Below, piece after piece: positions 31,150 to 61,553 of a stretch of 64,000 bases of DNA (its first letter is position 1; every line of letters starts with the position of its first letter). A program made the translations under genes and the position numbers. The DNA is taken from contig CAYIAX010000001.1 in NCBI GenBank assembly GCA_964361595.1, positions 32,100 to 96,099 on the forward strand. Reading direction: 5' to 3'. A model generated the notes under the pieces. It saw only the letters and a program-made list of their open reading frames with translations. It did no database searches and was not told the DNA's origin. This stretch comes from an uncultured Candidatus Saccharibacteria bacterium (GTDB taxonomy: Bacteria; Patescibacteriota; Minisyncoccia; UBA6257; 2-01-FULL-56-20).

Positions 31150-31185
31150 GTTCACGGTGCTATGCTATAGCATAGCACCGTGAAC
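31150..31185. repeat. palindromic repeat family copy a (36-nt perfect palindrome, core GTGCTATGCTATAGCATAGCAC)
   Basis: GTTCACGGTGCTATGCTATAGCATAGCACCGTGAAC. Confidence 0.8.
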
Positions 31186-31323
31186 CGGCATCTTTAAACC
31201 TATGCCTTTTATTTTGTAGAATACCTCGCGGCTGCTGCGCGGCGATTATTTACGTAATTCCGTACGTAAATAATTCGCCTTGCCAATCAGCATTGATCCG
31301 CGGTTTTTGGTATGCTTAAGACG

Positions 31324-32121
31324 ATGACAAAAATGAAGGTAGGCGTTTTTACAGCAATTGCAGTTATAATCGTAGGCGCTCTCACCACGTGGTTCCTTAA
31401 GCGTTCGCGCGAGGAGCATGTCTATGTTCCGCCGGCTCCAATCGAAGTTACAGATGAGCTGGTTAAAAAAATAATTCCTGGACTTATCCCCGCGGGCCAC
31501 GAAAAAGATAAGGTAAAAATTCTCGTGGAAGATTTGGACGGGAACGGCACGAAAGATATCGTTCTAAGTTCAGCTGTGCCGCCCGATCCGGAGCTGGGCA
31601 TAACGGAGGCGAAAATCACGATCGTCGAACCTACGGATACAAACGGCAATTATAAATTGGTGGCCGAGTATCCGTTTGTCGAACGCCGGGACAGTATGCC
31701 GTATGCAACAAATGCCCTCGATTTCGATGCGGACGGCCGGAAGGAGCTTTTGGTTCGCACTGGTTTCGGCGGGGCATACACCAATGAAAGCGCCTTATTT
31801 AAAATCAATTGGGATTCGAAAACGCTTACCTGGACCAAAGCCGGCTTTCCGGACGGTTCAAAAGAACTTCTGGGTTTGCTGCAGGGCGCATCCGTGAAAA
31901 ATTATGCTGATTTCGCTCTGGTTGATCTGGATAGCGATCGCACGCTTGAAATCGTGGTTAAGGGAGCGTCTCTCGTCGACGAGGCTGGCAACAGCTTGGA
32001 TCCAAAAAATTGGGAATGGAACATCTTAATCTACAAATGGAACGGCGAATTTTTTGCCTACAAACCCGATCTCACAAAAGCAAATGTCGATAAATTCAAA
32101 AATTTTACGCCCGGGGAATGA
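31324..32121 (+). CDS. membrane-anchored protein with FG-GAP/VCBS-like Asp-rich repeats
   Basis: DLDGNGTKDIV, DFDADGRKELLV, DLDSDRTLEIVV repeats. The likely leaderless start is at 31324, with an extended -10 TGgTATGCT at 31309-31317. The ORF track gives 31312. Confidence 0.45.
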   Translation: MTKMKVGVFTAIAVIIVGALTTWFLKRSREEHVYVPPAPIEVTDELVKKIIPGLIPAGHEKDKVKILVEDLDGNGTKDIVLSSAVPPDPELGITEAKITIVEPTDTNGNYKLVAEYPFVERRDSMPYATNALDFDADGRKELLVRTGFGGAYTNESALFKINWDSKTLTWTKAGFPDGSKELLGLLQGASVKNYADFALVDLDSDRTLEIVVKGASLVDEAGNSLDPKNWEWNILIYKWNGEFFAYKPDLTKANVDKFKNFTPGE

Positions 32122-32157
32122 TTTTGCGTAAAATTCAGATTATGATTTACTGAACTT

Positions 32158-32571
32158 ATGCAAGAAGGACCGAGGCCAGATAAAGATGCACATACGGATC
32201 GAGAGGCCCAAAAGATCGGGGAAGAGTTCGCAGCTTTAAAATTGCAGGAATGGCTTGAATCCGGCCGGCGCGCGGAACACGAGCGCCGCGGCGTCGGCCA
32301 CAGCCTAATCCAGATGCGCGCGTTGCGGCAGGCGCTTACGGATTTAATCGGCGATCATAAAATCCCCGCCGATTTGGAGTCGGGGAAAGTCAGCGGTTAT
32401 TTAGACGAAAATGTTACCGAGGAAAAGCCCGAAATTAAGGCGCGAGTACTCGTGACGAAGCAGATGCTCGACGACTTAGATCGAGATGGCCTTTTGCCGA
32501 GGGATCAGACTGTTGCGGAGCTTGCAGATTTTTTGGAGCGGGAACTGCGCAAGCTTGAACCTGAACATTAG
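32158..32571 (+). CDS. hypothetical charged protein
   Basis: 137-aa ORF. Confidence 0.35.
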   Translation: MQEGPRPDKDAHTDREAQKIGEEFAALKLQEWLESGRRAEHERRGVGHSLIQMRALRQALTDLIGDHKIPADLESGKVSGYLDENVTEEKPEIKARVLVTKQMLDDLDRDGLLPRDQTVAELADFLERELRKLEPEH

Positions 32572-32739
32572 ATGATTAAGCGTAAAGGCGGCAAATACGT
32601 CGTTTTATCCGAGAAGACGGGGCGCTCGTTTGGCACCTACGTAACCAAAGCTGAAGCCGAGCGGCGGCTGCGGCAAATCGAATTTTTCAAACATCTCAAA
32701 GCCAAGGGAAAAGCTAAAAATGCAAAAAAGCGAAGCTGA
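32572..32739 (+). CDS. small basic protein (55 aa), hypothetical
   Basis: ATG directly after the previous stop. Lys/Arg-rich. Overlaps the msrB start. Below the ORF-track cutoff. Confidence 0.25.
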
Positions 32740-33133
32740 CTGGAAAAAAGAACTTACGCCCGAGCAGTATCGCGTGATGCGGGAGCGGGGGACAGAGGCG
32801 CCGTTTACGGGTAAGTACGCGCACAATAAAGAAACGGGGATGTATAAATGCGCGGCCTGCGGGCATGATTTGTTCTCGTCCGACACGAAATTCGACTCCG
32901 GCACAGGCTGGCCCAGTTTTACCTCGCCCGCGGCTAAAGCGAATATCAAAGAACAGGTGGACACGAGCCACGGAATGACGCGCACAGAAGTTCTTTGCGC
33001 GAACTGCGGCGCGCACTTGGGGCACGTGTTCGCTGACGGCCCAAAAACTTTGCCGACGGGCAAGCCGGGTACTGGCAAGCGTTATTGCATTAATTCGGTT
33101 TGCTTGGATTTGGAGAAAGAAAGAAAACAATGA
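32720..33133 (+). CDS. msrB: peptide-methionine (R)-S-oxide reductase MsrB
   Basis: 137 aa. Two CxxC pairs (CAACGH ... CANCGAH) and the GWPSF motif. Confidence 0.88.
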
Positions 33134-33744
33134 AAATAAAAGTTATTATTCCGGTAATTCTGCTTGTGCTTGCGGCCGTAGGCGGCTGGTATTTCTTTCT
33201 GCGCTCCGAGCCGTTCAAACCAGGCTTGATTGTTGCGCTTGGCGATGACTTAACCGCTGGCTTTGGGGTGGGGCCGGATGAGAATTATGTGGCGGTGCTG
33301 TCGAAAACTTTGGGTCTGGAAGTGGTGAACGCCGGCAAAAATGGCGATACAACGGAGACTGCGCTCACGCGTTTGGATACCGATGTGCGCGCGTTAAACC
33401 CTCGGGTTGTTATTGTGCTCTTGGGCGGCAACGATATTCTGCGTGGTTTTGCTCCGCAAGAAGTTGAACAGAGACTCGCGAGTATCGTGCAAAAATTGCA
33501 AATCGGCGGCGCGCGTGTTTTGCTTTTAGGCGTTCGCGGCGGCGCTTATAAACATGATTACGATACAGTTTATAATCGCGTAGCTAGCACAAGCCAAGCG
33601 GCGTATCTACCCAATATCTTAGAAGGAATTGTTGATAATGCTGAATTGATGGCCGACCCTATACATCCAAATGCGAACGGCCATAAAAAAATTGCGGAGC
33701 GTATGGAAAAGAGATTGCGCGATATGCTGAAAGTAATAAAATAG
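33130..33744 (+). CDS. SGNH/GDSL-family hydrolase with N-terminal membrane anchor
   Basis: GDDLTAG (block I), GKNGDTT (block II), GGND (block III), and a C-terminal DPIHPN (DxxH). A GGAGAAAG Shine-Dalgarno precedes the ATG at 33130. Confidence 0.65.
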
Positions 33745-34073
33745 CATCAAGTTGGGCTTTACCACGATAATCAGCCATGGCTAATTATTGTGGTAATAAA
33801 ATATTGGAAAAACAAGAGGCTTGTAGCCAGCCAGCTTATCCACAACCAGTTCGGCTTGATTTTGCTATACTAAAACTTAGAATCCGCGTATATCTGCGTT
33901 CAATCTGCGTTTATCTGCGTCTGATTATCCGCGTTTATCCCTGCCTGCCGGCAGGCAGGCGCGCAGAAATCCGCGTAATCAGCGATTGTTGCAAAGCAAC
34001 AATGATTAGATGTAATAACTAGAAACGACAGGCCGTCATAAATAGTGAAAGGTCGCAAAGATACATAAAAATC

Positions 34074-34958
34074 ATGAAAAAAACAATTACGGCGCTAACG
34101 ATCGCAGTGCTTTTGGGAGGCCTGGGAACCGTGGCTAGTGCGCAAACAACCACGTCCACAGCAACTTCTTCCGCAAGCGCTCTACTCGAACAGCTAAAGA
34201 GGCAAGTGGAAAGCCTTCAGAGCCAGTTGCAGGCGGCACAAGCTACCAAACAGGAAATTATTGGTACTTTGCGGCTTTTGCGCGAGCTCCGCGAAGGCAT
34301 GTCGGGCGACGATGTCCGCATGCTGCAGCAAATTTTAGCGACAGACCCGCAAATCTATCCCGAAGGGAAAATTACCGGCTATTTCGGAAAGCTGACAGCC
34401 AAGGCTGTAAAGATGTTCCAGAAGAAAGCCGGCATTTCGCAGGTCGGACGTGTCGGACCGCAAACTCTCTCGAAGCTCAATGAGCTTCTGACCGAAGGCG
34501 CGGGCAACTCCGGCAAAGTTCCTCCGGGACTTTTGATCGCTCCGGGCATCGCGAAAAAGTTGGGTTATTCGCCCCAGCCCTTGCCGGGCCAGGTATTGCC
34601 TCCGGGCATCTTGAAAAAATTAGGCCAAGGTGGAGCAACCTCGACGCCGACTTCGACGCCTGACCTCATTGCACCGGTTATCTCTGCAGTAAGCGCAACG
34701 AGCACGACTTCGAGTTCGGTGACGATCGTTTGGACGACGGACGAAAGCGCGACGAGCAAAGTCTGGTATGCAACTTCCTCTCCGGTTGTGGCGACGAGCA
34801 CGACCGCATCGGTCAGCAATTCTGCATTGGTCACGAATCACTCGATCATGTTATCGGGACTTGTGAACAACACGAATTACTACTACTTGGTGCAGTCGGC
34901 TGATGCGGCGATGAATACCACGACCTCCGCGCAGTCCTCCTTCGCGACGCTTCCCTAG
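34074..34958 (+). CDS. secreted protein with peptidoglycan-binding (PG_binding_1) domain and C-terminal FN3-like domain
   Basis: Signal peptide. DVRMLQQILATD ... GYFGKLTAKAVKMFQKKAGI. A Ser/Thr-rich linker and a beta-rich C-terminus (TIVWTTDESATSKVWY ... NYYYLVQSADAAMN). Confidence 0.55.
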   Translation: MKKTITALTIAVLLGGLGTVASAQTTTSTATSSASALLEQLKRQVESLQSQLQAAQATKQEIIGTLRLLRELREGMSGDDVRMLQQILATDPQIYPEGKITGYFGKLTAKAVKMFQKKAGISQVGRVGPQTLSKLNELLTEGAGNSGKVPPGLLIAPGIAKKLGYSPQPLPGQVLPPGILKKLGQGGATSTPTSTPDLIAPVISAVSATSTTSSSVTIVWTTDESATSKVWYATSSPVVATSTTASVSNSALVTNHSIMLSGLVNNTNYYYLVQSADAAMNTTTSAQSSFATLP

Positions 34959-35029
34959 TTACTAATCCTACGAATGTCCGATCCGAATTAATTCGGAGCA
35001 TTCGTATTAGTGTAGTAAGGAGCGTTGCA

Positions 35030-35066
35030 AATCCCCGTCATTATGACGGGGATTTGTTATTTTTGT
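35030..35066 (+). terminator. intrinsic terminator
   Basis: AAATCCCCGTCAT / ATGACGGGGATTT followed by GTTATTTTTG. Confidence 0.7.
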
Positions 35067-35630
35067 CTTTAAGCAAAAATATCCTGAGCTTGTCGAAGGA
35101 TTTCGCAAATGGGACTCATAATTGTGCTTTTCGCCCGGACATTTTTACCCGCTTTGATTTGGCGGTTTCGTTTGGGCGGCGGCATCGCAGCAATCGTGGT
35201 GGTCGTCTTGATCGTCGTGCCCAAGTTTTTTCATGAATATCTTCTGCATGTCCGGCAAATTTCCCTCGGCCAGGGATTCAAAACAGTTCTAACCTCTTTT
35301 GAGGCTAGACATCATTTGTAGCGTTATGCACATGGGAGCTCTAGCAGAAAAGATTTATACTGAAATCAGGAAGGAGGTCGCCCGCCTATGCATAGCGGAA
35401 TTCGTGCTGCCTGCGTCGGCCACTCCGTCATCTAAGAAGGAGGTGATCCCAATCTGCTTCGCGCCACGGCCCGGGCGCGTCGTAAACCACGTAGCTGGCA
35501 GGGCAAATCCGGGGCGGAGTTTCTCTGCCCCATTTTCTTCTTGCCTTGCAAGAAGCGCGGACTGGCGCAGACCTTACGCGGAAGAACGCGGAAATGCGCG
35601 TTATTTAAATAACTTTCAATATTAAACAAA

Positions 35631-37297: not shown

Positions 37298-37310
37298 TCC
37301 TTAGTAGGAT

Positions 37311-38958: not shown

Positions 38959-39576
38959 TTGGGATTGCTATTTATGATTCACGAATTACCAAAACTTCCA
39001 TACGCTTATAACGCTTTAGAACCGTATGTTGACGCGCAAACGATGGAAATCCACTATACGAAGCATCATGGCGCATATGTGGCCAAACTGAACAATGCCT
39101 TAAAAGAATTTCCAGAGTGGCAGGAAAAATCGGTGGAGGAGTTGTTGCGTTCGCTCGACCAAATTCCCGAGAGCATCCGCACGGCCGTGCGCAACCACGG
39201 TGGCGGGCACTATAATCATTCGCTTTTTTGGCAGATGCTCCGTCCGGCCGGCGGGGGAGAACCGGAAGCGAATTTAAAAAAAGTCATCACGGAAGTATTC
39301 GGTTCGTTCGAAAATTTCAAAGCGGAATTTGTGAAAACCGCGGCCGGAATTTTTGGCAGCGGCTGGGCTTGGCTTGTGATAAATGAAGAAGGAAAACTGG
39401 CGATCACTTCAACGCCAAATCAGGATAATCCAATCTCAAAAGGGGAGCAGCCAATACTGGGTTTGGATGTTTGGGAACACGCCTATTATTTGAAGTACCA
39501 GAACAAGCGCCCCGACTATATTGAAGCTTGGTGGAATGTTGTAAATTGGGATGAGGTTTCACGATTGCACGAATAA
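38959..39576 (+). CDS. sodA: Fe/Mn superoxide dismutase
   Basis: 205 aa. [27 protein letters not shown]. Confidence 0.93.
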
Positions 39577-39616: not shown

Positions 39617-39645
39617 CGCTATGGTGCTATGCTATAGCATAGCGG
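39617..39645. repeat. palindromic repeat family copy b
   Basis: Core GCTATGCTATAGCATAGC at 39626-39643 with partly palindromic flanks. Confidence 0.7.
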
Positions 39646-39688: not shown

Positions 39689-40683
39689 GGCACACACATC
39701 TGGCGGACTAGGTAGATTGATATTCGGCAAGAAATTCGTTCGGCGTCTTGCCCTTCAGCCCGCAATGCTCCAGATCGTTGTATTCAGTATTCCACTTCCG
39801 CACCTTGGCGCGCAAGTCTTTTTCTGACCTGAAGACAGTTTGATCATAGAGGGTGCGCTGATCCGATCCATGCGAACGTTCGACCGTGCCGTTTTGTGCG
39901 GGTTTACCCGGATCAATGAGATAGTGCACGATGCCATTCCGCCCGCAGAAGATATCAAGGGCATGAAGTGTCTTCACGGTCAGATCGCTCCGCTTCGTGG
40001 TGCCTACGTACCGATTGGTGAAAGTGGAGTGGTTGTCGGTCTTGATGGCGGTGATGGGGTGCGGGAACCGCGCCATGACATCTTGCAAGAACTCCACGGA
40101 GTGGAACGTTGATTCTTCTTCAAAGATCCGCGGATACCGCCAGCGTGAGGCGCAGTCAACCGCCGTATACTGGAAATACGCTTTCCCCGCAACGGTTCCT
40201 GGCATATGTTTCACGTCGATCTCGACAAGCTCCCCGGGCTTCAAGGCCACCCTGAGGTATTTGCATTTCATCCGTTTCGCGCGGTAGCGGCGCACCAACC
40301 CTTCTGCTTTCAATATTTTCCCAATGGTGCGCTCGTGGATCAGAATGCCCTGCTTTTTGAGTTGCCAATGAAGTTTGAGTGCGCAGACCTTTTTCTTTCT
40401 GCGCAACGCGATGACCGCCTCCTTGATCGAGATCGGTGTTTCTTTGGGAGACGTCTTCGGCCGGGTGGAACGCGGCTCAAGCGCAGATTCGCCGCCGCGC
40501 CGGTATGCGGCGAGCCATCGTTCCAAAGTTCGCCTGCCATACGAAAACACCTTCATCACCTCCCTGATACTTGTCCGACCTTCTACGACGGGGACTACCC
40601 ATCGCAACCTTTCTTGTTTGATATTTTCAGCCATATGGATCGACATTCCCCGAGTTTACGGGAGTCCGCCATATGTGTGTGCA
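39689..40683 (-). mobile_element. IS481-family insertion sequence (~1 kb)
   Basis: Imperfect terminal inverted repeats GCACACACATCTGGCGGACT (39690-39709) and AGTCCGCCATATGTGTGTGC (40663-40682). A single transposase ORF lies inside. Confidence 0.65.
39708..40646 (-). CDS. IS481-family DDE transposase (HTH plus integrase-core rve domain)
   Basis: 312 aa. N-terminal HTH, DDE integrase core (VEIDVKHM ... YQYTAVD ... TDNHSTF ... YLIDPGKPAQNGTVER). Confidence 0.8.
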   Translation of the reverse strand: MSIHMAENIKQERLRWVVPVVEGRTSIREVMKVFSYGRRTLERWLAAYRRGGESALEPRSTRPKTSPKETPISIKEAVIALRRKKKVCALKLHWQLKKQGILIHERTIGKILKAEGLVRRYRAKRMKCKYLRVALKPGELVEIDVKHMPGTVAGKAYFQYTAVDCASRWRYPRIFEEESTFHSVEFLQDVMARFPHPITAIKTDNHSTFTNRYVGTTKRSDLTVKTLHALDIFCGRNGIVHYLIDPGKPAQNGTVERSHGSDQRTLYDQTVFRSEKDLRAKVRKWNTEYNDLEHCGLKGKTPNEFLAEYQST

Positions 40684-40726: not shown

Positions 40727-40844
40727 GTGAGGTAAACCTGGCCAGCGTACTGGGGCTAGTTCTTTCAAACTACGTTTAATTTTGAGCCCCAGTACGCTGT
40801 CTGGGTTCAGGTTCTTTGGTAATTTAGTTGGAAGGAGAGGAAAG

Positions 40845-41609
40845 ATGCAGATGCGCAAATTCGCGCTTTTTGTGGTTCTGGTGATTACCCTGGTGGCCTT
40901 GGTCGGCTGCAGTGGGCGGGTGGAGACAAAGGCCCGTGTGGAGAGCCGGCCAGCCGTTGATTCAGCCGTCGAGGCCCGGCAGAAGGCCATCGCCGAACTC
41001 AAGGCGGAGCTCGAGGAGATCATGAAGCCCGAATTCGGCCGGATAAGTGTGAATCTCGTCGAGGCCGAAGTGAAGGGGCGGAAGGTCCGTCCCGAGCTAT
41101 GCGAAGCGGAAGTTCGCTACGAGCGCTTCGCGAGCTTTTTGGCCTCGCCCGCATACAACGGGATCAGTCCAGCTGATCTAGGGACGACGGCGGAGCGTCT
41201 GAATGGAGAGAGACGGCAGCGGGCCACCCTCTACGTCAAACAAATTATGGTTGCCCTCCGCGAAGGCAACCCTGATTGCGGCGGCGTGAACCGAGACGTA
41301 ATCGGCCTGGCGAGGGACATACCCTACACCATGAACCAGGCTGGCTTGAGATTCACGGATGTGGATTTCAAGGCCGCAGACATTCGGGAGGTCGTCCGCA
41401 AGGAGATCGCGCGGCAGCTCGTCGGTCCCGAGGGCGCGATCGCGGTAGCCAAGGCCGGTGGATCGGATACCGAAGCCGAAGGCAAAGCCGACTCAATCAT
41501 CCTCGAAGCCCTTGAGTACGGCTTCTCGGCGGCCGATCTCGGCCTCAAGGGCGCCGACGCCGAATTTTTCGCTAAGCGCGCAAAGGCCTTGTCCGAAGGC
41601 GGCGGCTGA
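40845..41609 (+). CDS. high-GC lipoprotein, hypothetical
   Basis: Start at MQMRKF with a GGAGAGG Shine-Dalgarno. Lipobox LVALVGCSG. About 62% GC. Terminator at 41639-41671. Confidence 0.5.
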   Translation: MQMRKFALFVVLVITLVALVGCSGRVETKARVESRPAVDSAVEARQKAIAELKAELEEIMKPEFGRISVNLVEAEVKGRKVRPELCEAEVRYERFASFLASPAYNGISPADLGTTAERLNGERRQRATLYVKQIMVALREGNPDCGGVNRDVIGLARDIPYTMNQAGLRFTDVDFKAADIREVVRKEIARQLVGPEGAIAVAKAGGSDTEAEGKADSIILEALEYGFSAADLGLKGADAEFFAKRAKALSEGGG

Positions 41610-45668: not shown

Positions 45669-45739
45669 CTGGGGGACAGGGATTCGAACCCCGATACCAT
45701 CCTTCAAAGGGATGTGTCCTACCATTAGACGATCCCCCA
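45669..45739 (-). tRNA. tRNA-Gln (anticodon UUG)
   Basis: Reverse complement TGGGGGA-TC-GTCT-AATGGTA-GGAC-A-CATCC-CTTTGAA-GGATG-GTAT-CGGGG-TTCGAAT-CCCTG-TCCCCCA-G. Cloverleaf with a 7-bp acceptor, anticodon TTG, A37, discriminator G. No encoded CCA. Confidence 0.8.
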
Positions 45740-46348: not shown

Positions 46349-46405
46349 TTCTCATTCGCTCATTCGCGCGAATGAGCGAAACTGGCTGCCGACTCGCTCC
46401 GCCCA

Positions 46406-53229: not shown

Positions 53230-55929
53230 TTGTCGGGTATGAGTTCTTGGCATAACCGGCCGCTGGGAACGCTCGAAAGCGAGCTCCAAACGGATATTCA
53301 GCATGGGTTGACTGCTGCGGAAGCCGCAGCAAGGCGTGAGCGTTACGGCTTGAACGCTTTGCCCAAAGGAAAGCGCGAGCCGATGCTTTTGATTTTTCTG
53401 CGGCAATTCCAAAGTCCGCTTATCTATGTTTTGCTTACGGCCGCTGTCATCGTGCTTCTCACCGGCGAGCGGACTGATGCCTTGATCATTATTTTCGTCC
53501 TGCTTTTCAATGCGGTCGTGGGGACACTCCAGGAGGGCAGGGCGCAAAACACGCTTGAAGCCCTAACGGCATTTGCGACCACCTCCGCCACGGTCTTGCG
53601 CGATAACGAGGAATTGATTCTGCCGGACGAAGAGATTGTGCCGGGCGACATTATTATTCTCCATGAAGGCGAACGGATTCCTGCGGACGGACGCGTGATC
53701 GAAGCCTCATCTTTGCGCGCAGATGAAGCCGCGCTTACGGGCGAATCCGTACCGGTGCACAAAACCGAAGCGACTTTACGCAAAGCCGAACTGCCCCTGG
53801 GGGAGAAGACGAACATGGTTTGGAAGGGCACGCATGTGACGAGCGGCAGCGGGAAAGTGCTGGTCGTGGCAACCGGACTCGAGACTGAATTGGGCAGGAT
53901 CAGCGAAAGCATCAAAGTCGAAACGGAAATACCTCTGCGGCGGGAGATCCGTGCGCTGTCCCGCGTGATCATCGCCGCGGTAGCAGGGATAAGCCTTGTG
54001 ATTTTCCTTTTGGGCTGGCTCTTAAATAGCACTTCAGCGCGGGAAATGTTCGCTGTCGTGGTTTCTTTGGCCGTTTCGGTGATCCCGGAAGGTTTGCCGG
54101 TTGTGATGACGCTCGTCTTGGCCACCGGTGTCTGGCGGATGGCCAAACGGCAGGCGCTCGTCAAAAAACTCCAAGCCGTCGAGGCCTTGGGCCAGGCCAA
54201 AGTAATTGCGGTCGACAAAACCGGAACCTTGACCCGCAACGAAATGATCATCCGCAGAGTTTTCGTCGCCGGTAAGGAATACGAAATCGGCGGCACAGGC
54301 TATGAGCCGCGGGGAGAATTCAGGCAAGGAGAAAAAATCATTGACCCGCCTAACCATCCAGAATTGCTTTTGGCCGGCAAACTCGCCACCTTTTGCGCCA
54401 ATGCGCGCGTGGCCTTGATCGAGGACCATGTGGCGCCGAGCTGGAAAGTCATGGGTGATCCGACCGAAGCGGCGATGCTCGTCTTCGGAGAAAAGATGGG
54501 CTTTCACAAGGAGGATCTGGAACGTGAAGCTCCGCTTTTGGCCGAGTTGCCGTTCGATTACAAAACGAAATACCACGTGACCGCACACGCGGACAGAGGG
54601 AAACAATTTGTGACCGTGGCCGGTGCGCCCGAATCAGTGCTCACGCTTTGTACAGAAATCTACGGAATTAAAAACAATTCCGTTTTGTCCCCGGCGGAGA
54701 AAACCAGGCTGGAAAATACTTTTCACAATCTGGCGGCTCACGGTTTTCGCGTAGTTGCTTTCGCATTTGCGGAGCGGCCGTTCTTAAAGCTGGCCAAAAT
54801 TTTGGATCTGGAAATAGAGTCGCTCGTATTCGCCGGTTTCTTTGCCATGGAAGATTCGCTGCGTCCGGAAGTGCCGCAGGCGATGGAACGCGCGCGGGCG
54901 GCCGGCATTCGCATCGTGATGATCACGGGCGATCATCGGCTGGCGGCCGTCACGATCGCCAAGGAAGCGGGAATTTGGCAGGCTGACGATAAAGTTTTGA
55001 CCGGTGAAGAACTAGCCAAGCTAAACGAACAGGAACTTGCCGCGCTCCTGCCCCGAACTTCGGTTTTTGCCCGCGTGACGCCGGAAGATAAACTGAAAAT
55101 AATCAGCGCTTACAGAAAACGCGGCGAGATCGTGGCCATGACGGGGGACGGGGTAAACGATGCGCCTTCGCTGGTGGCGGCGGATCTGGGCGTGGCGATG
55201 GGCAAGATCGGCACGGAGGTGGCGAAGACCGCGGCGGACATCGTGCTCTTGGACGATAATTTCGGCAGTATTGTTTCAGCGGTGGAGGAGGGAAGAAGCA
55301 TTTATAAAACCATAAAGAAAGTCATTCTTTATCTCTTTTCCACGAGTTTGGGCGAGGTCTTGACGATCGCGGGCGCATTGATGCTGGGTTTTCCTTTGCC
55401 GCTTTTGGCGGCGCAGATTTTATGGCTCAATCTCGTAACCGATGGATTTTTGGATGTGGCCTTGGGCATGGAGCCCAAGGAAAAAGGGTTGCTTAATGAA
55501 AAATTCGGCTCGTCGCGGCGGCAGTTGGTTGACCGCCTGATGGGTTGGCGCATGCTCAATATGGCCCTGCCGATGATGATCGGGAGCTTAATTATTTTCC
55601 GTTTGTCCGATTGGTCCAATATGGAAGTTGCCTGGACCTGGACCTTGACCACGCTTGCGATTTTCCAATGGTTCAACGCCTGGAATTGCCGCTCCGAAAC
55701 AAAATCAATTTTCCAAATGAATCCTTTGAGTAATCCATTTCTTGTTTTGGCGACGCTTACGATTTTTCTCCTCCAGCTCGCTGCGGTTTATACGCCCTTC
55801 CTGCAGGGGATCTTGCACACCGCTCCTTTAAGCCTCACGCAATGGCTCTGGGCGGCTGTGGTTGCGCTTTCGATCATATTTGCCGAAGAAACAAGAAAGG
55901 CTTTCGCGCGGAAAAGGCTTGTTGCCTAA
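53230..55929 (+). CDS. P-type ATPase, cation-transporting (P2-type Ca2+/Mg2+-like)
   Basis: 899 aa. TGES, DKTGTLT phosphorylation site, TGDGVNDAP, 10 TM helices. Confidence 0.9.
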   Translation: MSGMSSWHNRPLGTLESELQTDIQHGLTAAEAAARRERYGLNALPKGKREPMLLIFLRQFQSPLIYVLLTAAVIVLLTGERTDALIIIFVLLFNAVVGTLQEGRAQNTLEALTAFATTSATVLRDNEELILPDEEIVPGDIIILHEGERIPADGRVIEASSLRADEAALTGESVPVHKTEATLRKAELPLGEKTNMVWKGTHVTSGSGKVLVVATGLETELGRISESIKVETEIPLRREIRALSRVIIAAVAGISLVIFLLGWLLNSTSAREMFAVVVSLAVSVIPEGLPVVMTLVLATGVWRMAKRQALVKKLQAVEALGQAKVIAVDKTGTLTRNEMIIRRVFVAGKEYEIGGTGYEPRGEFRQGEKIIDPPNHPELLLAGKLATFCANARVALIEDHVAPSWKVMGDPTEAAMLVFGEKMGFHKEDLEREAPLLAELPFDYKTKYHVTAHADRGKQFVTVAGAPESVLTLCTEIYGIKNNSVLSPAEKTRLENTFHNLAAHGFRVVAFAFAERPFLKLAKILDLEIESLVFAGFFAMEDSLRPEVPQAMERARAAGIRIVMITGDHRLAAVTIAKEAGIWQADDKVLTGEELAKLNEQELAALLPRTSVFARVTPEDKLKIISAYRKRGEIVAMTGDGVNDAPSLVAADLGVAMGKIGTEVAKTAADIVLLDDNFGSIVSAVEEGRSIYKTIKKVILYLFSTSLGEVLTIAGALMLGFPLPLLAAQILWLNLVTDGFLDVALGMEPKEKGLLNEKFGSSRRQLVDRLMGWRMLNMALPMMIGSLIIFRLSDWSNMEVAWTWTLTTLAIFQWFNAWNCRSETKSIFQMNPLSNPFLVLATLTIFLLQLAAVYTPFLQGILHTAPLSLTQWLWAAVVALSIIFAEETRKAFARKRLVA

Positions 55930-55961
55930 GGAATAAACGTGATATTCTTTGTAGACAAATG

Positions 55962-56693
55962 GTGAAGCTTTCCCGCTCCAAGCTCGAATTGTTTCTTGAA
56001 TGTCCGCGCTGTTTTTGGCTGGATCTGCGCCATAAGATTAAGCGGCCACCGCCGGCGCCGTACACCATCAACAATGCCGTTGATTATCTCTTGAAGCAGG
56101 AATTTGATGTCCATCGCGAAAAAGGCACGCCGCATCCGGTGATGGTTGCGCACGAGATCAAGGCCGTTCCCTACAACACTGCGGAGCTCGGCAAATGGCG
56201 GCATAATTTCACCGGCGTGCAATTCCATCACAAGCCCACGGATTTTTTGGTTTACGGAGCGGTGGATGATGTTTGGGAAAATCCACAAGGAGAACTGATT
56301 GTCGTTGATTACAAAGCGACCGGCGCGAACCAGCACCGGATCTATGATTCTTATCGCCGCCAGCTGGAAATTTACCAGTGGCTCCTACGGGGAAACGGGT
56401 ACCAGGTTTCTGGGACCGGGTATTTTGTCTTTGCCCGCGTAAGCAAAGCTAACGGTTTCACGGGAGCGACGGTCGAAGAGCGCACAGCCGCATTATCTTT
56501 CGATCTTTTTGTGGAACCGCTCGTAGGGGATTCAAGCTGGGTAGAACCCGCGATCGCAAGGGCCAGGGAAGCGTACGATCAAAGCAGTCTCCCCGCAGCC
56601 TCGCCGGACTGCGAATACTGCGCTTACCGACGCGCCAGCGAAGTGCTCGATCTGGAAAAAGCGGCCTTGAAGCCGAAAAACAAAAACGCCTGA
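55962..56693 (+). CDS. PD-(D/E)XK nuclease family protein, Cas4/RecB-like with C-terminal Cys cluster
   Basis: Start at MVKLSRSK. LFLECPRCFWLD N-terminal Cys pair, VVDYKATG (D-x-K), C-terminal CEYCAY. Confidence 0.55.
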   Translation: MKLSRSKLELFLECPRCFWLDLRHKIKRPPPAPYTINNAVDYLLKQEFDVHREKGTPHPVMVAHEIKAVPYNTAELGKWRHNFTGVQFHHKPTDFLVYGAVDDVWENPQGELIVVDYKATGANQHRIYDSYRRQLEIYQWLLRGNGYQVSGTGYFVFARVSKANGFTGATVEERTAALSFDLFVEPLVGDSSWVEPAIARAREAYDQSSLPAASPDCEYCAYRRASEVLDLEKAALKPKNKNA

Positions 56694-56730: not shown

Positions 56731-56768
56731 ATCGCCTAGTGCTATGCTATAGCATAGCACTAGGCGAT
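56731..56768. repeat. palindromic repeat family copy c (38-nt perfect palindrome)
   Basis: ATCGCCTAGTGCTATGCTATAGCATAGCACTAGGCGAT. It abuts the extended -10 TGcTACAAT of the next gene. Confidence 0.8.
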
Positions 56769-56785
56769 AATGCTACAATTTGATC

Positions 56786-57184
56786 ATGAGTGGTCTTTCG
56801 AAAAATTGGATGATGCCGCCCCAAGGTGATTATTCCTCACGTAAAGAATGGGAAATAGCTTGCTGGCAAAAACTTTTAGACTCTACTGACTTGATTGATC
56901 TGCTTACCACCCCGCACGAACGCAGAGATTTTGTCATGCGTGCCGCCGCACTTAACATGATTATGTCTGGGAAAAGTTACCGCGAGATTGGCCGCGAGTT
57001 ATGGCTTTCTCCGCAAACAATAAGCGGGCTCAAAAAAGCCTTGGAGGAAAAAATTTATCGGAGCTATTTAGAGCGGAGTAAAACTGAACGCAAAAAGAGA
57101 GTATACAGTTCTAAGCCAGACAAGTTACAGCCGAAGCACCGTGGCATACCACGCCGGACCAAATACGGAAAGATTTACATTTGA
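56786..57184 (+). CDS. YerC/YecD (TrpR-related) HTH protein, leaderless
   Basis: MIMSGKSYREIGRELWLSPQTISGLKKAL matches the TrpR-like HTH. TACAAT at 56774-56779 lies 6 nt upstream of the ATG at 56786. The ORF track starts at a TTG at 56780. Confidence 0.5.
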   Translation: MSGLSKNWMMPPQGDYSSRKEWEIACWQKLLDSTDLIDLLTTPHERRDFVMRAAALNMIMSGKSYREIGRELWLSPQTISGLKKALEEKIYRSYLERSKTERKKRVYSSKPDKLQPKHRGIPRRTKYGKIYI

Positions 57185-57228: not shown

Positions 57229-57254
57229 CGATGCTATGCTATAGCATAGCATCG
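57229..57254. repeat. palindromic repeat family copy d
   Basis: CGATGCTATGCTATAGCATAGCATCG. Confidence 0.8.
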
Positions 57255-57354
57255 TTGCGTTTGGCTTCAGGTTTTTAATTTTGGCCATTTAAATAGCAGT
57301 TTATTTAGATTTTATTTAAGTCGAATTTCTAATCTAAATTGGTATAATTTAAAA

Positions 57355-57702
57355 ATGTTGGCCGTCCGCAAGCCGAAGCTTTTACAGTTTACGTATCACA
57401 GCCGGGCGAAGATGCGCTATTGGGGGTTATCGGAGTCGCGCGTGAAGCATGCGATGCATTCGCCGCGGCGCGTCGAGGAGGGGATTGCGCCAAAGACGAT
57501 TGCGATGATGCAGCCTATCACCGTTAAGCGCGAACAGGGCCGCGAGACTTGGAAGCAGGAACTTTGGGTGATGATCCAGGATATGGGCTCGCGCCGGAAA
57601 ATCATCAGCGCCTGGCGCTATCCGGGCATGACGAAGCCGCGCGATGAAATTACGAAAGATTTTTTACGCCAGGAATACCGCGCTTACACGGCGCGGCAGT
57701 AA
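57355..57702 (+). CDS. DUF4258-like (toxin-like) hypothetical protein, leaderless
   Basis: 115 aa. FTYHSRAKMRYWGLSESRVKHAM fits the DUF4258 N-terminal pattern. Extended -10 TGgTATAAT lies 6 nt before the ATG. Confidence 0.4.
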   Translation: MLAVRKPKLLQFTYHSRAKMRYWGLSESRVKHAMHSPRRVEEGIAPKTIAMMQPITVKREQGRETWKQELWVMIQDMGSRRKIISAWRYPGMTKPRDEITKDFLRQEYRAYTARQ

Positions 57703-57857
57703 CAACATTCTCACATTCTCAAGAATATGAGAATGTTGTTTTGTAGCCTCTCTTCAATTCTTTACTCCGATTTTTCAGCGTCGGAGTACAAAGCTGAAGT
57801 GAGGGGCAGAAGCAATGTGAGATCGCTTCTGCCCGGATTGGAGGCGGCGATGCCTCC

Positions 57858-58376
57858 CTAGTTTGCGGTGGTGTGAGCGAGGGCCTGCGCGGTCCTCGCC
57901 TTGTTTACCACCGCCTGCGTCAGACGGTGGGCGCGGCGCACGAGCTGCGTGATCTCCTTGCGCGCCTCGGCGGTCTCGCGGGTGGTTGCGCCGAGCTTGG
58001 CGAGATCGCCCAGCGTCGCCGTGCGGCGCTGACGCTCGACGTGCGCCCGGCTCTCCGCGAGCTCGCGCTCGCGGCGCGCCTGCGCTTCCGCGCGCGCTCG
58101 CGCTGCGGCCGCGCGCTCCTGGATTTGACCCAGATAGCGCAGGGCCGCGGGCAGCGGATGGAGCCGCACGTCCTGCCTCCGCTCACGCTCGCGGGCGCAC
58201 CGCGAGCAGAGCGCGAAGCTCCGCACCTGTTCGTCCGTGAGGTCGGCGATCCCGACTTCACGGTCGAGGATGCTCTCCACGGCGGTCGCGATTCCGGCGA
58301 GCGCGAGGACGCGGGTGCCGCTTTTCAGCATTTGGGCACGGCAGCCGTGCCCAGCGCATTTCAAAATCTGTGGCAT
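57858..58376 (-). CDS. very high-GC (~70%) zinc-ribbon/coiled-coil hypothetical protein
   Basis: 172 aa. Strong AGGAGGTGG Shine-Dalgarno and TATAAT upstream on the minus strand. CAGHGC ... CSRC. Arg/Ala-rich coiled coil. GC-rich hairpins downstream. Confidence 0.5.
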   Translation of the reverse strand: MPQILKCAGHGCRAQMLKSGTRVLALAGIATAVESILDREVGIADLTDEQVRSFALCSRCARERERRQDVRLHPLPAALRYLGQIQERAAAARARAEAQARRERELAESRAHVERQRRTATLGDLAKLGATTRETAEARKEITQLVRRAHRLTQAVVNKARTAQALAHTTAN

Positions 58377-58496
58377 AAGCCACCTCCTGTCTTATATTAT
58401 ACCACTCACAGTAATAATGTCAAGGATAGGCATAAACCCGCATTTTAGCTATGATTTTATGTAAAGTGTTGAATTCAAATCTCGTCTAAACTCACG

Positions 58497-58937
58497 ATGA
58501 TCCTCACTTCACCGGCATTCGAGCATAACGGGAAGATTCCCAAAAAATTTACCTGCAGTAGCTTCGATGTAAATCCGGAACTGCAGATTCAAAATGTGCC
58601 GCCCGCGGCAAAGTCTTTGGCGCTCATTGTGGATGATCCAGATGCGCCGTCCGGCACCTTCACACACTGGACGGTTTGGAATATTGATCCTCGGACAACT
58701 TTCATTAAGGAAGAAAGCACGCCGCCCAAAGCCGTTGAGGGCATGACTGATTTCGCTAAAATCGGTTACGGCGGGCCATGTCCGCCTGCCGGCAAACCGC
58801 ATCGTTACTTTTTCAGACTTTTCGCTTTGGATTTTATGTTGGATTTGTCCGCGGGCGCAAACAGAAACGAATTGGAGTCAGCCATGAAAGACCATATTCT
58901 AGCCGAGGCGGAACTTATCGGCATTTATGGGCACTAA
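58497..58937 (+). CDS. YbhB/YbcL-family PEBP (Raf kinase inhibitor-like) protein
   Basis: 146 aa. DPDAPSG ... HW and GY ... PCPP ... HRY PEBP signatures. Confidence 0.7.
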   Translation: MILTSPAFEHNGKIPKKFTCSSFDVNPELQIQNVPPAAKSLALIVDDPDAPSGTFTHWTVWNIDPRTTFIKEESTPPKAVEGMTDFAKIGYGGPCPPAGKPHRYFFRLFALDFMLDLSAGANRNELESAMKDHILAEAELIGIYGH

Positions 58938-59006
58938 TTGATTCTTGTCTTGAACTTGCTGAAGGGTTACATTTTTCTCTTTTTAAACAAATAGTATAAT
59001 TTAGCG

Positions 59007-59375
59007 ATGACACCCCGTTCAGTAATTTTATTATTGCGTTTCGGCCTGGCTTTTGTTTTTGCCTACGCCGCGATCTCTTCGTTTATAAACCCGTTTAATT
59101 GGATCGGTTATTTTTCGTCATTCATGCGGAGCCTGCTGCCCGAAAACCTGCTGCTCATTGGATTTTCGATTACGGAGCTGTTTTTAGCTGTCTGGCTGGT
59201 TTCGGGAAAATATGCGGTCTGGGCTGCACTCCTAGCTTTCGCCATGCTCGCGGGCATAACCGTTTTCAATCTCCATGTTCTTGATGTGACCTTCCGCGAT
59301 GTCGGGCTTGCCTGCGCAGCGCTCGCGCTTTATTTCGCTGCGAAATCCGAAAAGCAGGCGAACCTGGGAAATTAA
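59007..59375 (+). CDS. DoxX-family membrane protein, leaderless
   Basis: 122 aa, 4 TM helices. TATAAT at 58995-59000 lies 6 nt before the ATG. Confidence 0.5.
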   Translation: MTPRSVILLLRFGLAFVFAYAAISSFINPFNWIGYFSSFMRSLLPENLLLIGFSITELFLAVWLVSGKYAVWAALLAFAMLAGITVFNLHVLDVTFRDVGLACAALALYFAAKSEKQANLGN

Positions 59376-59580
59376 CCGCCTAATTAGCTGGATCAAACTA
59401 AGCCCGATGGTTATCCACAGGTTGCTTGACGGAGAATAAACTTTGCTTTAAGCTCAATTTAATGGTTGCATATGGGAAATTGAATGTTTGCGCTATGACC
59501 CCCGTCTTTTTTGGCGTCCTTACGCTTATTGTGATTAAGACCAAGGTGGATTCAGGGGGTAGAGTATAAAATTGGACTAA

Positions 59581-59618
59581 AGAACTAAAACCCCCTGGAT
59601 CCAGGGGGTTTTAGTTCT
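59581..59618. terminator. 38-nt perfect palindrome / bidirectional terminator
   Basis: AGAACTAAAACCCCCTGGA / TCCAGGGGGTTTTAGTTCT. Confidence 0.6.
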
Positions 59619-59725
59619 GGCTTAGACGCTCCGCGGCTTTTATGAAAAAGATGCCGAGCGTCCAGGCCGTAAGTCGTGGTCTGGTTGGAAGGGCTCATTA
59701 ACAAATTAATAGGAAGGGAAAAACC

Positions 59726-60280
59726 GTGGAAACTGCGATTAAGGTGATCTTTACGGTTGCGGGAAACCCACTAAGCGAGGCGGTGGTTGAAAAATTGCGG
59801 GAATTGTCGCTTGCGAAAAGCGGCCCGCGTTCGCCGGTTTGCACAACCTATAGCAACCTCGCGGACCTGACCGGCGCGCTCGCGGCAGTCTCACCGGATT
59901 CGGTGTTGGCGCTCTGGGATGCGACATTCAAGTCGGGATGCCGGCGGCACTTCCGGCATTACGATGTAGGGACAAAAAAGCCCTGCTCGCTGCCGGAATG
60001 GGCGGCGAAGGTGCGGTGGGCGGTAGTTTTGAACGCCGGGTGCTTCGCCGAAGCCGCCTTGATGAAGGAGGGACGGAAAACTGCGGTGGATACGATGGTC
60101 CGCCGTTGCGCCGAGCAAATCCGCGCGAACTTCCTTGTCAAGTTCGCGGACCGCGTGAATGCGAAGGTTTTGCCCTGGGGGGAGCCCAAAAGCTCCCGGA
60201 AAAAGCGTGGCAGCTATCTCGCCCCGCGCGGTTCCTGGAGCACCTATCCGCGTGCAATCCACGCCAGTTCCCTCTGGTAA
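59726..60280 (+). CDS. high-GC hypothetical protein
   Basis: 184 aa. GC about 60%. No recognisable domain. Confidence 0.35.
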   Translation: METAIKVIFTVAGNPLSEAVVEKLRELSLAKSGPRSPVCTTYSNLADLTGALAAVSPDSVLALWDATFKSGCRRHFRHYDVGTKKPCSLPEWAAKVRWAVVLNAGCFAEAALMKEGRKTAVDTMVRRCAEQIRANFLVKFADRVNAKVLPWGEPKSSRKKRGSYLAPRGSWSTYPRAIHASSLW

Positions 60281-60616
60281 ATCCGGCGACGAATCGCAAG
60301 CAGCGCGCTTCGATTCATCGCAGCCGTCCCCGTGGGAATTCATTTCGGAGCATCCGGAGCTGATCCGTTTCATCAATGGATGCTAGTCTAGTGATCGGCA
60401 GCGATACAACATCGCTGCCTTTTTGTTGCAAGAAAGTAAGTCGCTTGTATCTTTTTTAGCAACAACATAAGGACAACTATCAATTTGTACCTTCGGCGCG
60501 AACGGCTTGCCCGCTACTGGCAGTAGGCGGTAATCCGCATAATATTCGCGCACAGCTTCGGTTGCGCGTTTTTTATTGCTAATGTGCTTTGTGTTTACGT
60601 AATTAAATCGAGAAGC

Positions 60617-60640
60617 AGTGCTATGCTATAGCATAGCACT
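60617..60640. repeat. palindromic repeat family copy e
   Basis: AGTGCTATGCTATAGCATAGCACT. Confidence 0.8.
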
Positions 60641-60700
60641 CAGCAAGAGTCGACAAATCCATTTTTAATGTGGTATAAATTTTGCAGCAGGAGGTGAATT

Positions 60701-61255
60701 TTGTCTGAAGCAACGCAGCCTCTCACAACCCCGCCGCCGGAACCCGTGCGGCGACGCATGCCCGCGGAGCGCAAATCGCTCACGCATAAGTTCTGCGTGG
60801 GCGGCCACGAGGGCTACATCACCGTGGGCCTGTACGAGGACGGCACCCTCGGTGAAATTTTTGTCGCGATGGCCAAGGAAGGCTCAACGGTTAGCGGCTT
60901 GGCGGATAGCTTCGCTATCGCCATTTCTCTAGCACTGCAGTACGGCGTGCCGCTCTCGGTGCTCACGGAGAAGTTCAGCCACACGCGCTTCGAACCCAGC
61001 GGCTGGACAGGCAACCCGGAAGTTCCCTACGCAAAGAGCGTTGTCGATTACATTTTCCGCTGGCTTGCCCTGCGCTTCCAGGTTGAAGCCGCGGCGCAAG
61101 AGTCAGCGGAAACGCCTACAATCGCAACGGATTTGCAGGGAAAGTTTGACTATCTGCCCATCTGCCTCGAATGTGGCGCGACGATGGAGGATTTGACCAA
61201 GGAGTATCGGTGCCGGAGTTGCGGGGCGCTGTCGCCAAAACCCCGAGCGCAGTAG
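60701..61255 (+). CDS. stand-alone TSCPD-domain protein with C-terminal zinc ribbon
   Basis: TTG start after a GGAGGTG Shine-Dalgarno. HKFCVGGHEGYITVGLYEDGTLGEIFVAMAKEGSTVSGLADSFAIAISLALQYGVPL matches the TSCPD fold seen at the class II RNR C-terminus. C-terminal CLEC ... CRSC. Confidence 0.5.
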   Translation: MSEATQPLTTPPPEPVRRRMPAERKSLTHKFCVGGHEGYITVGLYEDGTLGEIFVAMAKEGSTVSGLADSFAIAISLALQYGVPLSVLTEKFSHTRFEPSGWTGNPEVPYAKSVVDYIFRWLALRFQVEAAAQESAETPTIATDLQGKFDYLPICLECGATMEDLTKEYRCRSCGALSPKPRAQ

Positions 61256-61330
61256 GAAATTTCCTCTGCGCTTTTTATTTTCACCTACCAGAATGCCTCG
61301 TCGCTCTACGGCGAGGATAAATGGCGGAGT

Positions 61331-61392
61331 GAAAATAACCCTGCCGTCCCTTTGGGGCGAGTCTCGCCACGGGCGGGAGCCGGGTCGAAGAG
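61331..61392. repeat. GC-rich ~58-nt element, copy 2 (the paralogous copy is at 1772-1830)
   Basis: GAAAATAACCCTGCCGTCCCTTTGGGGCGAGTCTCGCCACGGGCGGGAGCCGGGTCGAAG is about 85% identical to the copy upstream of tuf. Hairpin-preserving substitutions. Confidence 0.65.
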
Positions 61393-61523
61393 TTAAAAAA
61401 TAATCCTGCTTGCCCGTTCCGAATCCGCCTCCGCCGATTGGCGGATAGCAGAGAAGGCGAGAGTTTATCAAAGGATTCCAATTTGATTTTTTGAAGCCTA
61501 GTAAAACAGATGAATGCACTCAA

Positions 61524-61553
61524 CTGGGTGCTATGCTGTAGCATAGCACCCAG
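61524..61553. repeat. palindromic repeat family copy f (one central mismatch)
   Basis: CTGGGTGCTATGCTGTAGCATAGCACCCAG. Confidence 0.75.

Follow-up and report, generated by a model that had tools for sequence, protein, structure and literature searches.

Extragenic palindromes of a Patescibacteria contig as probable binding sites of the TrpR-like regulator whose gene they bracket

The DNA analysed here is a stretch of 64,000 nucleotides, called the window below, from an uncultured Candidatus Saccharibacteria bacterium (contig CAYIAX010000001.1, positions 32,100 to 96,099 of the forward strand, assembly GCA_964361595.1); contigs identical to it are known from a Hainich groundwater metagenome, 0.1 µm filter fraction. 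It holds six extragenic palindromes with a common core, and two of them bracket the gene of a small helix-turn-helix (HTH) protein of the TrpR/YerC family at 56810-57184. We put the probability that these palindromes are specific DNA-binding sites of this protein at about 0.8. To our knowledge, little is known of gene regulation in Patescibacteria (the candidate phyla radiation), which are uncultured, have tiny genomes and encode few regulators. A literature search on regulators, operators and the Trp repressor in Patescibacteria, Paceibacteria and the candidate phyla radiation found no description of this system, and the 14-nt core TATGCTATAGCATA was not found in the papers searched. What the analysis offers is a concrete and testable pair of regulator and site that is widespread in genomes of the Paceibacteria type.

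The palindromes and the gene between two of them

When the window was searched with the 22-mer GTGCTATGCTATAGCATAGCAC at up to 3 mismatches, exactly six copies were found, at the places where an earlier note on this DNA had seen them, and 0.00 matches were found in shuffled versions of the window. The 14-mer core returned the identical six sites. The dyad centres are at 31167.5, 39634.5, 56749.5, 57241.5, 60628.5 and 61538.5, and the perfect arms of copies 1 to 6 measure 18, 9, 19, 13, 12 and 15 bp, respectively, with one central mismatch in copy 6. All six copies lie outside credible genes. The earlier note had placed five of them between 56 and 62 kb but the number there is four of the six, and it had given copy 2 as 39617-39645, where a palindrome is indeed present but is perfect only over 39626-39643, the remaining flanks being imperfect. 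The elements on which the argument rests are these:

31150-31185, no strand: copy 1, a 36-nt perfect palindrome with 18 bp arms around the core GTGCTATGCTATAGCATAGCAC
39624-39645, no strand: copy 2, a perfect 18-nt core at 39626-39643 (9 bp arms) with mismatched outer positions
56731-56768, no strand: copy 3, a 38-nt perfect palindrome with 19 bp arms, directly upstream of the regulator promoter
56771-56779, plus strand: extended -10 element TGCTACAAT of the regulator gene promoter
56810-57184, plus strand: regulator gene, encoding a 124-aa TrpR/YerC-family HTH protein
57229-57254, no strand: copy 4, a 26-nt perfect palindrome with 13 bp arms
60617-60640, no strand: copy 5, a 24-nt perfect palindrome with 12 bp arms
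60671-60679: extended -10 element TGGTATAAA on the side of a TSCPD/NrdJ-like gene, near copy 5
61524-61553, no strand: copy 6, 30 nt with 15 bp arms and one central mismatch (TATA to TGTA)
61589-61597: extended -10 element TGCTATAAT ahead of an Nramp gene, near copy 6

Copies 3 and 4 bracket the regulator gene, the centre of copy 4 being 57 nt past its stop codon. The same arrangement was found elsewhere. In loci that had been selected by the motif, 10 of 10 regulator homologues had a palindrome on both sides. A second sample free of motif bias consisted of 80 metagenome loci that were fetched solely via protein similarity, and in these the canonical motif was found within 400 nt upstream of the gene in 48 of 75 loci and downstream in 43 of 72. 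In most of the other protein-selected loci the brackets were variants of the form [GA][CT]T[ATG]TG-N6-CA[TAC]A[GA][CT], with centres that include ACGCGT, ACATGT, ATGCAT, CCCAGG, AACCTT, CTGCAG, ATATAT and CCGCGG, and a few had little or no flanking sequence. Taken together, the homologues in about 90 loci outside the window were almost always bracketed, either by the canonical palindrome or by a lineage-specific variant. Overall a site was present upstream in 65 of 70 and downstream in 54 of 67 homologous loci, and the bracketing is independent of the orientation of the neighbouring gene:

Upstream site, co-directional neighbour: 44 of 48 loci
Upstream site, divergent neighbour: 21 of 22 loci
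Downstream site, co-directional neighbour: 31 of 39 loci
Downstream site, convergent neighbour: 23 of 28 loci

The palindromes are concentrated at the regulator gene, and their density falls steeply with distance from it:

Under 150 nt from the gene: 5.85 palindromes per kb
150-400 nt: 1.03 per kb
0.4-1 kb: 0.18 per kb
1-2 kb: 0.03 per kb
2-3 kb: 0 per kb (none in 78 kb)

Over the 170 kb that lie 1-3 kb from the gene in 74 protein-selected loci, this amounts to three copies. A distant paralogue (35% identity) in locus L028 is bracketed by the different palindrome GCTACTACG|CGTAGTAGC, and paralogues of one genome each have their own type, as do those of L103 and L146, which lie on a single contig, and the three in the metagenome-assembled genome (MAG) WY2.bin82. 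Homologues of 80-93% identity were found in varying genomic context.

Matches of the regulator to the TrpR family

The start codon at 56810 was set by an identical 124-aa database protein (P0001), and 337 homologues of the regulator were found. The protein matches the Pfam family Trp_repressor (PF01371) with 27.7 bits against a cut-off of 27 (E = 2.9e-6). PF01371 is also annotated for most of the 120 homologues listed, several of which are named 'Trp family transcriptional regulator' or YerC by their sources. The regulator scores below both the TrpR and the YerC equivalog cut-offs of NCBIfam, which points to a distinct subfamily. It carries a basic C-terminal extension (YRSYLERSKTERKK ... RGIPRRTKYG). 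When the family profile was aligned by hhalign with the E. coli TrpR sequence, the probability was 79.5% (E = 1.5e-5) and P68 of the regulator fell on Ile79 of TrpR, the first residue of the recognition helix, a position which helps to set the operator specificity of TrpR. An AlphaFold2 model (mean pLDDT 80.4) has helices at 11-25, 27-31, 35-52, 57-64 and 68-80 and a confident C-terminal beta-hairpin, and a Foldseek search of the PDB with it placed TrpR (1trr, 1tro) and the TrpR-like entries 3kor, 3g1c and 3frw at the top, with probabilities up to 0.95.

The earlier note had likened the palindromes to repetitive extragenic palindromes (REPs) and bacterial interspersed mosaic elements (BIMEs), and had proposed that either a REP-associated tyrosine transposase (RAYT) or other Y1 transposase or a dimeric HTH regulator might be their partner. 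It is the latter that lies between copies 3 and 4, its dimeric state being our assumption, and the bracketed gene has no Y1/HUH motif: in searches and alignments of the regulator family neither Y1_Tnp nor any other transposase catalytic family nor a conserved His-hydrophobic-His motif was found. The PADLOC defence models and the PHROG phage families gave no match for the regulator, and no tryptophan or histidine genes adjoin any palindrome site.

Residues of the protein covary with bases of the palindrome

The protein and the palindromes change together. In 80 distinct proteins with an assignable palindrome type, the residue X in the motif ELWLS-X-QTIS, at the N-terminus of the recognition helix, tracks the half-site, and the residue X in YRSY-X-ERSK, in the basic extension, tracks the central 6 bp:

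ELWLS-X-QTIS, X = P: half-site CTATG in 62 of 64
ELWLS-X-QTIS, X = S: half-site CTGTG in 5 of 5
ELWLS-X-QTIS, X = S: half-site CTTTG in 5 of 5
ELWLS-X-QTIS, X = L: half-site TTATG in 5 of 5
YRSY-X-ERSK, X = L: central 6 bp CTATAG in 32 of 39
YRSY-X-ERSK, X = R: central 6 bp ACATGT, ACGCGT or CCGCGG in 23 of 24
YRSY-X-ERSK, X = A: central 6 bp AACCTT in 2 of 2
YRSY-X-ERSK, X = K: central 6 bp CCCAGG in 2 of 2
YRSY-X-ERSK, X = P: central 6 bp ATATAT in 2 of 2

In a neighbour-joining tree of the proteins the change from P to S occurred in at least five separate places and that from P to L in at least four, each with the matching change in the DNA. Because residue and DNA changed together repeatedly and independently, common descent alone is insufficient to account for the covariation, which therefore argues for sequence-specific recognition by the regulator. 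We regard this as strong computational evidence that the protein would read the whole dyad. A recognition code of this kind, in which a helix residue tracks a base of the half-site and a residue of the extension tracks the dyad centre, should make tests in vitro easy and should allow the targets of such regulators to be predicted straight from metagenomes.

The promoter of the regulator gene

The position of the upstream palindrome relative to the promoter is also conserved. In 34 of about 72 unique loci, and across all palindrome types, an extended -10 element (TGnTAnnnT) has the start of its hexamer at a distance of exactly 16 nt from the dyad centre. For copy 3 of the window, the arms of which exceed those of most loci by 8 bp, this distance is 24 nt (hexamer TACAAT, 56774-56779). 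The palindrome directly upstream of the extended -10 is thus a putative operator at the regulator's own promoter. A bound dimer would span about -40 to -18, of which autorepression is the natural reading, and the geometry, which supports autoregulation well, points to repression by the regulator of its own promoter via copy 3. In many of those loci an ATG follows 6-7 nt past the hexamer, which implies a leaderless mRNA. This conserved promoter design of an extended -10, often with a leaderless mRNA, should likewise ease tests in vitro and the prediction of targets. The same close spacing was seen in the window at 57340-57357 (TGGTATAAT) and 61589-61606 (TGCTATAAT), where 6 nt separate the extended -10 hexamer from the start codon (ATG 57355 and GTG 61604, respectively), and at many regulator loci such as L105, L120, L132 and L156; taken at face value, it implies leaderless mRNAs from extended -10 promoters without a -35 box. 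The -10 boxes quoted in the earlier note do exist, and three of them are extended -10 elements (TGCTACAAT, TGGTATAAA and TGCTATAAT). That the palindrome might itself be the promoter was considered, as TGCTATAGC is like an extended -10 box, and was rejected since the types with the centres ACGCGT or CCCAGG have no such likeness.

A probable mode of action is as follows. A symmetric dimer would bind the 18-22 bp dyad, with the N-terminus of the recognition helix (ELWLS-P-QTIS) reading the outer half-sites GCTATG/CATAGC, and with the basic extension (YRSY-L-ERSK), which is peculiar to this Patescibacteria subfamily, reading or at least tracking the central 6 bp. At copy 3, which stands against the extended -10 of the regulator, a dimer bound at roughly -40 to -18 would shut the promoter. 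Copy 4 would be a second site at the 3' end of the gene, which could be a partner in looping or could block transcription that enters or leaves the gene. Copies 1, 2, 5 and 6 would form a small dispersed set through which the same protein probably affects the neighbouring genes (FG-GAP, NrdJ-like TSCPD and Nramp). We infer the dimeric binding, the sign of the regulation and the roles of the dispersed and downstream sites from the protein-palindrome pair, the covariation and the promoter geometry, which the sequence analysis itself brings out.

Comparison with known systems

TrpR and HisR (YerC) recognise palindromes of 20 bp whose consensus differs between lineages, and a HisR gene often has a site of its own ahead of it (PMC9413887). 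The system described here is like them in that it has a small all-helical HTH protein which matches PF01371 and for which profile and fold searches rank E. coli TrpR first, a palindrome of about 20 bp with lineage-specific consensus, a site at the regulator's own promoter and a putative specificity residue that aligns with Ile79. It differs from them in the conserved basic C-terminal extension (YRSYxERSKTERKK ... RGRPxRTKYG), which has a predicted beta-hairpin end and whose residue x tracks the central 6 bp, in the bracketing of the regulator gene on both sides, in the several paralogues per genome with different site types and in that the genes near the palindromes have no link to tryptophan or histidine metabolism.

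Identical dyads upstream and downstream of a gene are reminiscent of autoregulated phage and plasmid repressors and of looping repressors such as LacI, GalR and DeoR. The two bracket sites are 449-590 bp apart, a spacing that is compatible with DNA looping. Unlike for such repressors, there is no sign of tetramerisation, the regulator matches no phage or defence family, and helical phasing between upstream and downstream sites was looked for and rejected (Rayleigh p about 0.8).

Spread and genomic placement of the motif

The 18-nt core GCTATGCTATAGCATAGC was scanned in 185,579 species genomes (596 Gb), in which about 9 chance matches are expected for any 18-mer. It was found in 93 stretches, about 86 of which are MAGs of Patescibacteria/Paceibacteria with labels such as Wolfe-, Lipton-, Jorgensen-, Colwell-, Kaiser- and Brennerbacteria, Paceibacteria and similar. 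The core is thus conserved across deep divergence, and its occurrence in many Patescibacteria genomes means that the palindromes are a true sequence family, as the earlier note had supposed, and neither a local duplication nor confined to one locus. In WY2.bin82 (GenBank JAKAHD01) about 20 exact copies of the core are spread over its listed contigs. About 7 loci outside Patescibacteria (archaea, Anaerolineae, Oligoflexales and Omnitrophota) also match, a number close to that of the chance matches. Two methanogen MAG contigs, L086 (5293-5310) and L089 (7818-7835), share the exact 18-mer with identical flanks (TTATTAACTAAAGCTTGCTATGCTATAGCATAGCACA).

When 64 tandem-region copies were oriented by their neighbours, the information was confined to within about ±12 nt, with the consensus RGYGCTATGCTATAGCATAGCRCY, and no conserved -10 box or T-run was found in the flanks of these copies. 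Copies within one genome have no common sequence past the dyad of about 24 bp. About 85% of the fetched sequence is coding and only 16 of 107 copies lie in called open reading frames (ORFs), mostly doubtful ones; 21 further copies at locus ends were left out of this count. The palindromes are thus extragenic and avoid called ORFs, as had been claimed, and they are not confined to gene starts. By intergenic class, assigned from crude ORF calls in the fetched loci, they are distributed as follows:

Tandem intergenic: 64 copies, 288 background regions
Convergent intergenic: 17 copies, 79 background regions
Divergent intergenic: 10 copies, 98 background regions

Such a distribution does not agree with a promoter operator or with a terminator in pure form.

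Hairpins and the extension of the arms

The claim that the flanking arms stay self-complementary holds statistically. In 122 unique copies the complementarity at arm positions 13-19 was 0.31-0.48, compared to about 0.25 further out, and 13 copies had arms of at least 16 bp where about 1 was expected. This raises the question whether the palindromes act alone as RNA or single-strand hairpins, that is, as terminators, mRNA-stabilising stem-loops or cruciforms, with the conserved sequence incidental or recognised by the protein only in a secondary way. Five of the six window copies, if transcribed, would fold at -19 to -31.5 kcal/mol with z-scores of -4 to -8.6, the arms are longer than the core beyond chance, many copies come soon past stop codons with the downstream bracket typically centred 10-60 nt past the stop, and copy 4 fits a loose terminator pattern. 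These features speak for hairpins. The hairpins are, however, not followed by T-tracts as Rho-independent terminators are, despite their stability: at least 5 T in the 8 nt after the palindrome were found for 9% of downstream and 3% of upstream copies, so there is no T-tract enrichment, although the same window has canonical terminators with T-runs at 60397-60419, upstream of copy 5, and at 59592-59608. Copies are also found between divergent genes and upstream of promoters, and long arms are not enriched at 3' ends, arms of at least 15 bp being present in 6% of the copies in convergent regions and in 18-40% elsewhere. The palindromes matched no Rfam family, the sole match in a scan of the window at the gathering threshold being a tRNA at 45669-45739. 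The loop of a hairpin, moreover, has no need to be self-complementary, and hairpins leave the covariation with protein residues unexplained. We consider it improbable that the hairpins act on their own. The earlier note had argued for selection for a hairpin or cruciform in preference to simple duplication. Duplication can indeed be set aside, as the core is present in many genomes, but selection for a hairpin, which may still play a part, is not needed to account for the conserved core.

The extension of the arms is nonetheless real, and it is explained neither by protein binding nor by termination. The window also holds unrelated long, loop-free perfect palindromes, which may point to a mutational tendency in these genomes towards perfect and ever longer palindromes, for instance through template switching at quasi-palindromes.

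Weighing the explanations

Several observations weigh against the conclusion that the palindromes are sites of the HTH protein, or at least against its simplest form. The structural likeness to TrpR is weak (Foldseek E = 0.1, TM 0.39-0.46), these values being for a monomer model and TrpR being an intertwined dimer. The downstream bracket has no evident role in a classical repressor model, and protein binding does not account for the extension of the arms past the recognised 22-26 bp. The dispersed copies are not depleted in convergent regions (17 convergent and 10 divergent, compared to 79 and 98 in the background), those in tandem regions have no preference for gene starts (the closer gene boundary is the upstream stop for 28 and the downstream start for 22) and they have no fixed offset to an extended -10, which was found at +16 in 1 of 188 flanks. 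With such a placement a simple promoter-operator model fails for the dispersed copies. Finally, the TSCPD locus of a close relative (L177) has no site in 21 kb, in a different context without Nramp, so that the set of target genes may differ between genomes.

A rival view is that the palindromes belong to a selfish module like REPs and RAYTs, in which palindrome, gene and palindrome are a mobile or formerly mobile cassette, the dispersed copies are its non-autonomous derivatives and the HTH protein serves the element. Several features are in keeping with it: the palindromes lie outside genes, the gene that goes with them has its own palindromes on both sides whatever the neighbours, there are several paralogues per genome, each with a homogeneous palindrome type that differs by gene lineage, the context differs among homologues of 80-93% identity, copies are not rarer in convergent regions, as has been seen with REPs, and the palindrome can be the target of other insertions. 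But the regulator has neither a catalytic domain nor a Y1/HUH motif, and its matches to transposases are limited to generic HTH models. The dispersed copies are scarce, as seen from the three in 170 kb above, and the six in the 64-kb window, two of them at the regulator gene, fall far below the high copy number of REPs. No element body was found, copies in a genome being alike only in the dyad of about 24 bp, and no target-site duplications were seen. The palindromes are perfect and loop-free, the exact 18-mer is kept across many candidate families, unlike the fast-evolving REPs, and the fixed geometry of operator and promoter suggests a regulatory function. We therefore give a selfish module a small chance, and the REP/BIME-like label of the earlier note is not supported for a family whose gene is an HTH and not a Y1/RAYT gene, which has at most 0.03 copies per kb beyond 1 kb, the core of which is common to many candidate families and in which protein and DNA covary. 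A family that is REP-like by eye can be a transcription-factor system, with brackets, diversified paralogues and dispersed sites at 3' ends.

Least probable is a role of the palindrome in DNA uptake, in chromosome organisation (as a parS, matS or Noc-like site) or as some other landmark across the genome that a structural protein would bind. A conserved palindrome common to many related genomes, placed independently of orientation and paired with a small dedicated DNA-binding protein would suit such a landmark, but its density is far under that of uptake signals, the copies keep out of coding sequence, the sites gather at the regulator gene in a promoter-specific geometry and the specificity has diversified into many types and paralogues. 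A more speculative idea, rather unlikely though less so than the alternatives above, is that the TrpR-like proteins and their palindromes are a self-contained kind of genome punctuation in these reduced genomes. Each paralogue would sit at the edges of transcription units, both ends of its own gene among them, as an orientation-independent boundary that halts RNA polymerase as a roadblock or insulates adjacent units, and not as a classical operator, and the pairs would diversify and spread in a semi-selfish manner like REPs and RAYTs without a transposase.

Two further candidates were rejected. A manganese regulon with an MntR-type operator was raised by the superoxide dismutase, Nramp and P-type ATPase genes nearby, and the neighbours elsewhere are unrelated to it (the Cys-rich family described below, pilin-like, TsaD, MreB and LeuRS). 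Prophage late-promoter or phage repressor sites were dismissed, as there was no match in a phage collection and no PHROG match for the regulator. That the palindromes are specific sites of the TrpR-family protein is thus the explanation we prefer.

Neighbouring genes and other observations

Three of the dispersed copies stand ahead of -10 hexamers at a distance of 45-53 nt: copy 1 at the FG-GAP gene, copy 5 at the TSCPD/NrdJ-like gene and copy 6 at the Nramp gene. Copy 1 lies between a doubtful minus-strand ORF (30534-31106) and an FG-GAP repeat gene (31312-32121, plus strand), with a -10-like TAGAAT at 31217, 49 nt from its dyad. Copy 5 comes after the canonical terminator at 60397-60419 with its T-run, and the -10 hexamer (60674) of the TSCPD/NrdJ-C-terminal-like gene 60701-61255 follows 45 nt further on. 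For copy 6 the distance to the -10 hexamer, which is that of TGCTATAAT (61589-61597), is 53 nt, and the Nramp transporter gene 61604-62857 comes next. The stand-alone TSCPD protein resembles the C-terminal part of B12-dependent ribonucleotide reductase and its neighbour is the Nramp transporter, with a palindrome ahead of each gene. Homologues of the window neighbour genes were rare in the fetched loci, and a search for TSCPD homologues returned mostly ribonucleotide reductase fragments by source annotation.

Copy 2 is 58 nt past the stop of an Fe/Mn superoxide dismutase gene (38959-39576) and is followed by an insertion element:

39690-40682: IS481-type element with inverted repeats at 39690-39709 and 40663-40682, 20 bp and 95% complementary

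Its transposase gene (312 aa, minus strand, 39708-40646) is included, and the element sits between copy 2 and the plus-strand gene 40782-41609, so that it may have split copy 2 from its original neighbour gene. One palindrome had been said to abut an IS481 element; the element does adjoin copy 2 but its end is about 45 nt away and it is not inserted into the palindrome. Directly upstream of the regulator cassette is a gene for a Cas4-like PD-(D/E)XK nuclease (55842-56693; PADLOC Cas4 models, E about 1e-9), and neither a CRISPR array nor a further cas gene was noticed in its vicinity.

Genes of a Cys-rich protein family (about 590 aa) recur beside the sites and often adjoin the regulator gene, and in several loci where they form a tandem array its first ATG follows the dyad centre by 19-27 nt. 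The proteins have repeated C..C...LRNK.YCI.N.QY.KEEY motifs and a C-terminal CxxCYQxEVV (for example L027 2335-4113; tandem arrays in L037, L044, L068 and L084), and no match was found in Pfam, NCBIfam, PADLOC or PHROG. Apparent frameshifted copies of this family without a palindrome lie in the window at 25842-28146. Small reverse-transcriptase genes (354-368 aa, Pfam RVT_1) in two unrelated MAGs, L021 5530-6594 and L058 3694-4800, have a palindrome of the family 86-123 nt downstream.

In some loci two palindrome types abut directly, as in CTATGACATGTCATAG-CG-CTATGCTATAGCATAG (L006 about 400-431, L023 about 3440-3473 and L032 about 7403-7436), and further examples are in L066, L068, L076 and L081; such composite sites could bind two paralogous regulators side by side. 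In L131 (3435-3649) an insertion of about 215 nt interrupts the downstream palindrome GGCACTATGCTATAGCATAGTGCC at the centre. The ends of the insertion are short and inverted (TTAAGGGC ... GCCCTTAA), and TATAGC is duplicated. The palindrome is intact in a strain with an identical regulator protein (compare L130 3418-3441 and L104 1475-1498), and the insertion looks like a polymorphic element of the miniature inverted-repeat transposable element (MITE) kind that targets the dyad centre.

The unrelated zero-loop perfect palindromes of the window are at 21163-21206, 59581-59618, 46355-46380 and 33940-33959, with arms of 22, 19, 13 and 10 bp, respectively. That at 59581-59618 (AAAACCCCCTGGATCCAGGGGGTTTT) resembles a bidirectional terminator. 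Perfect palindromes without a loop may be a general habit of the source genome.

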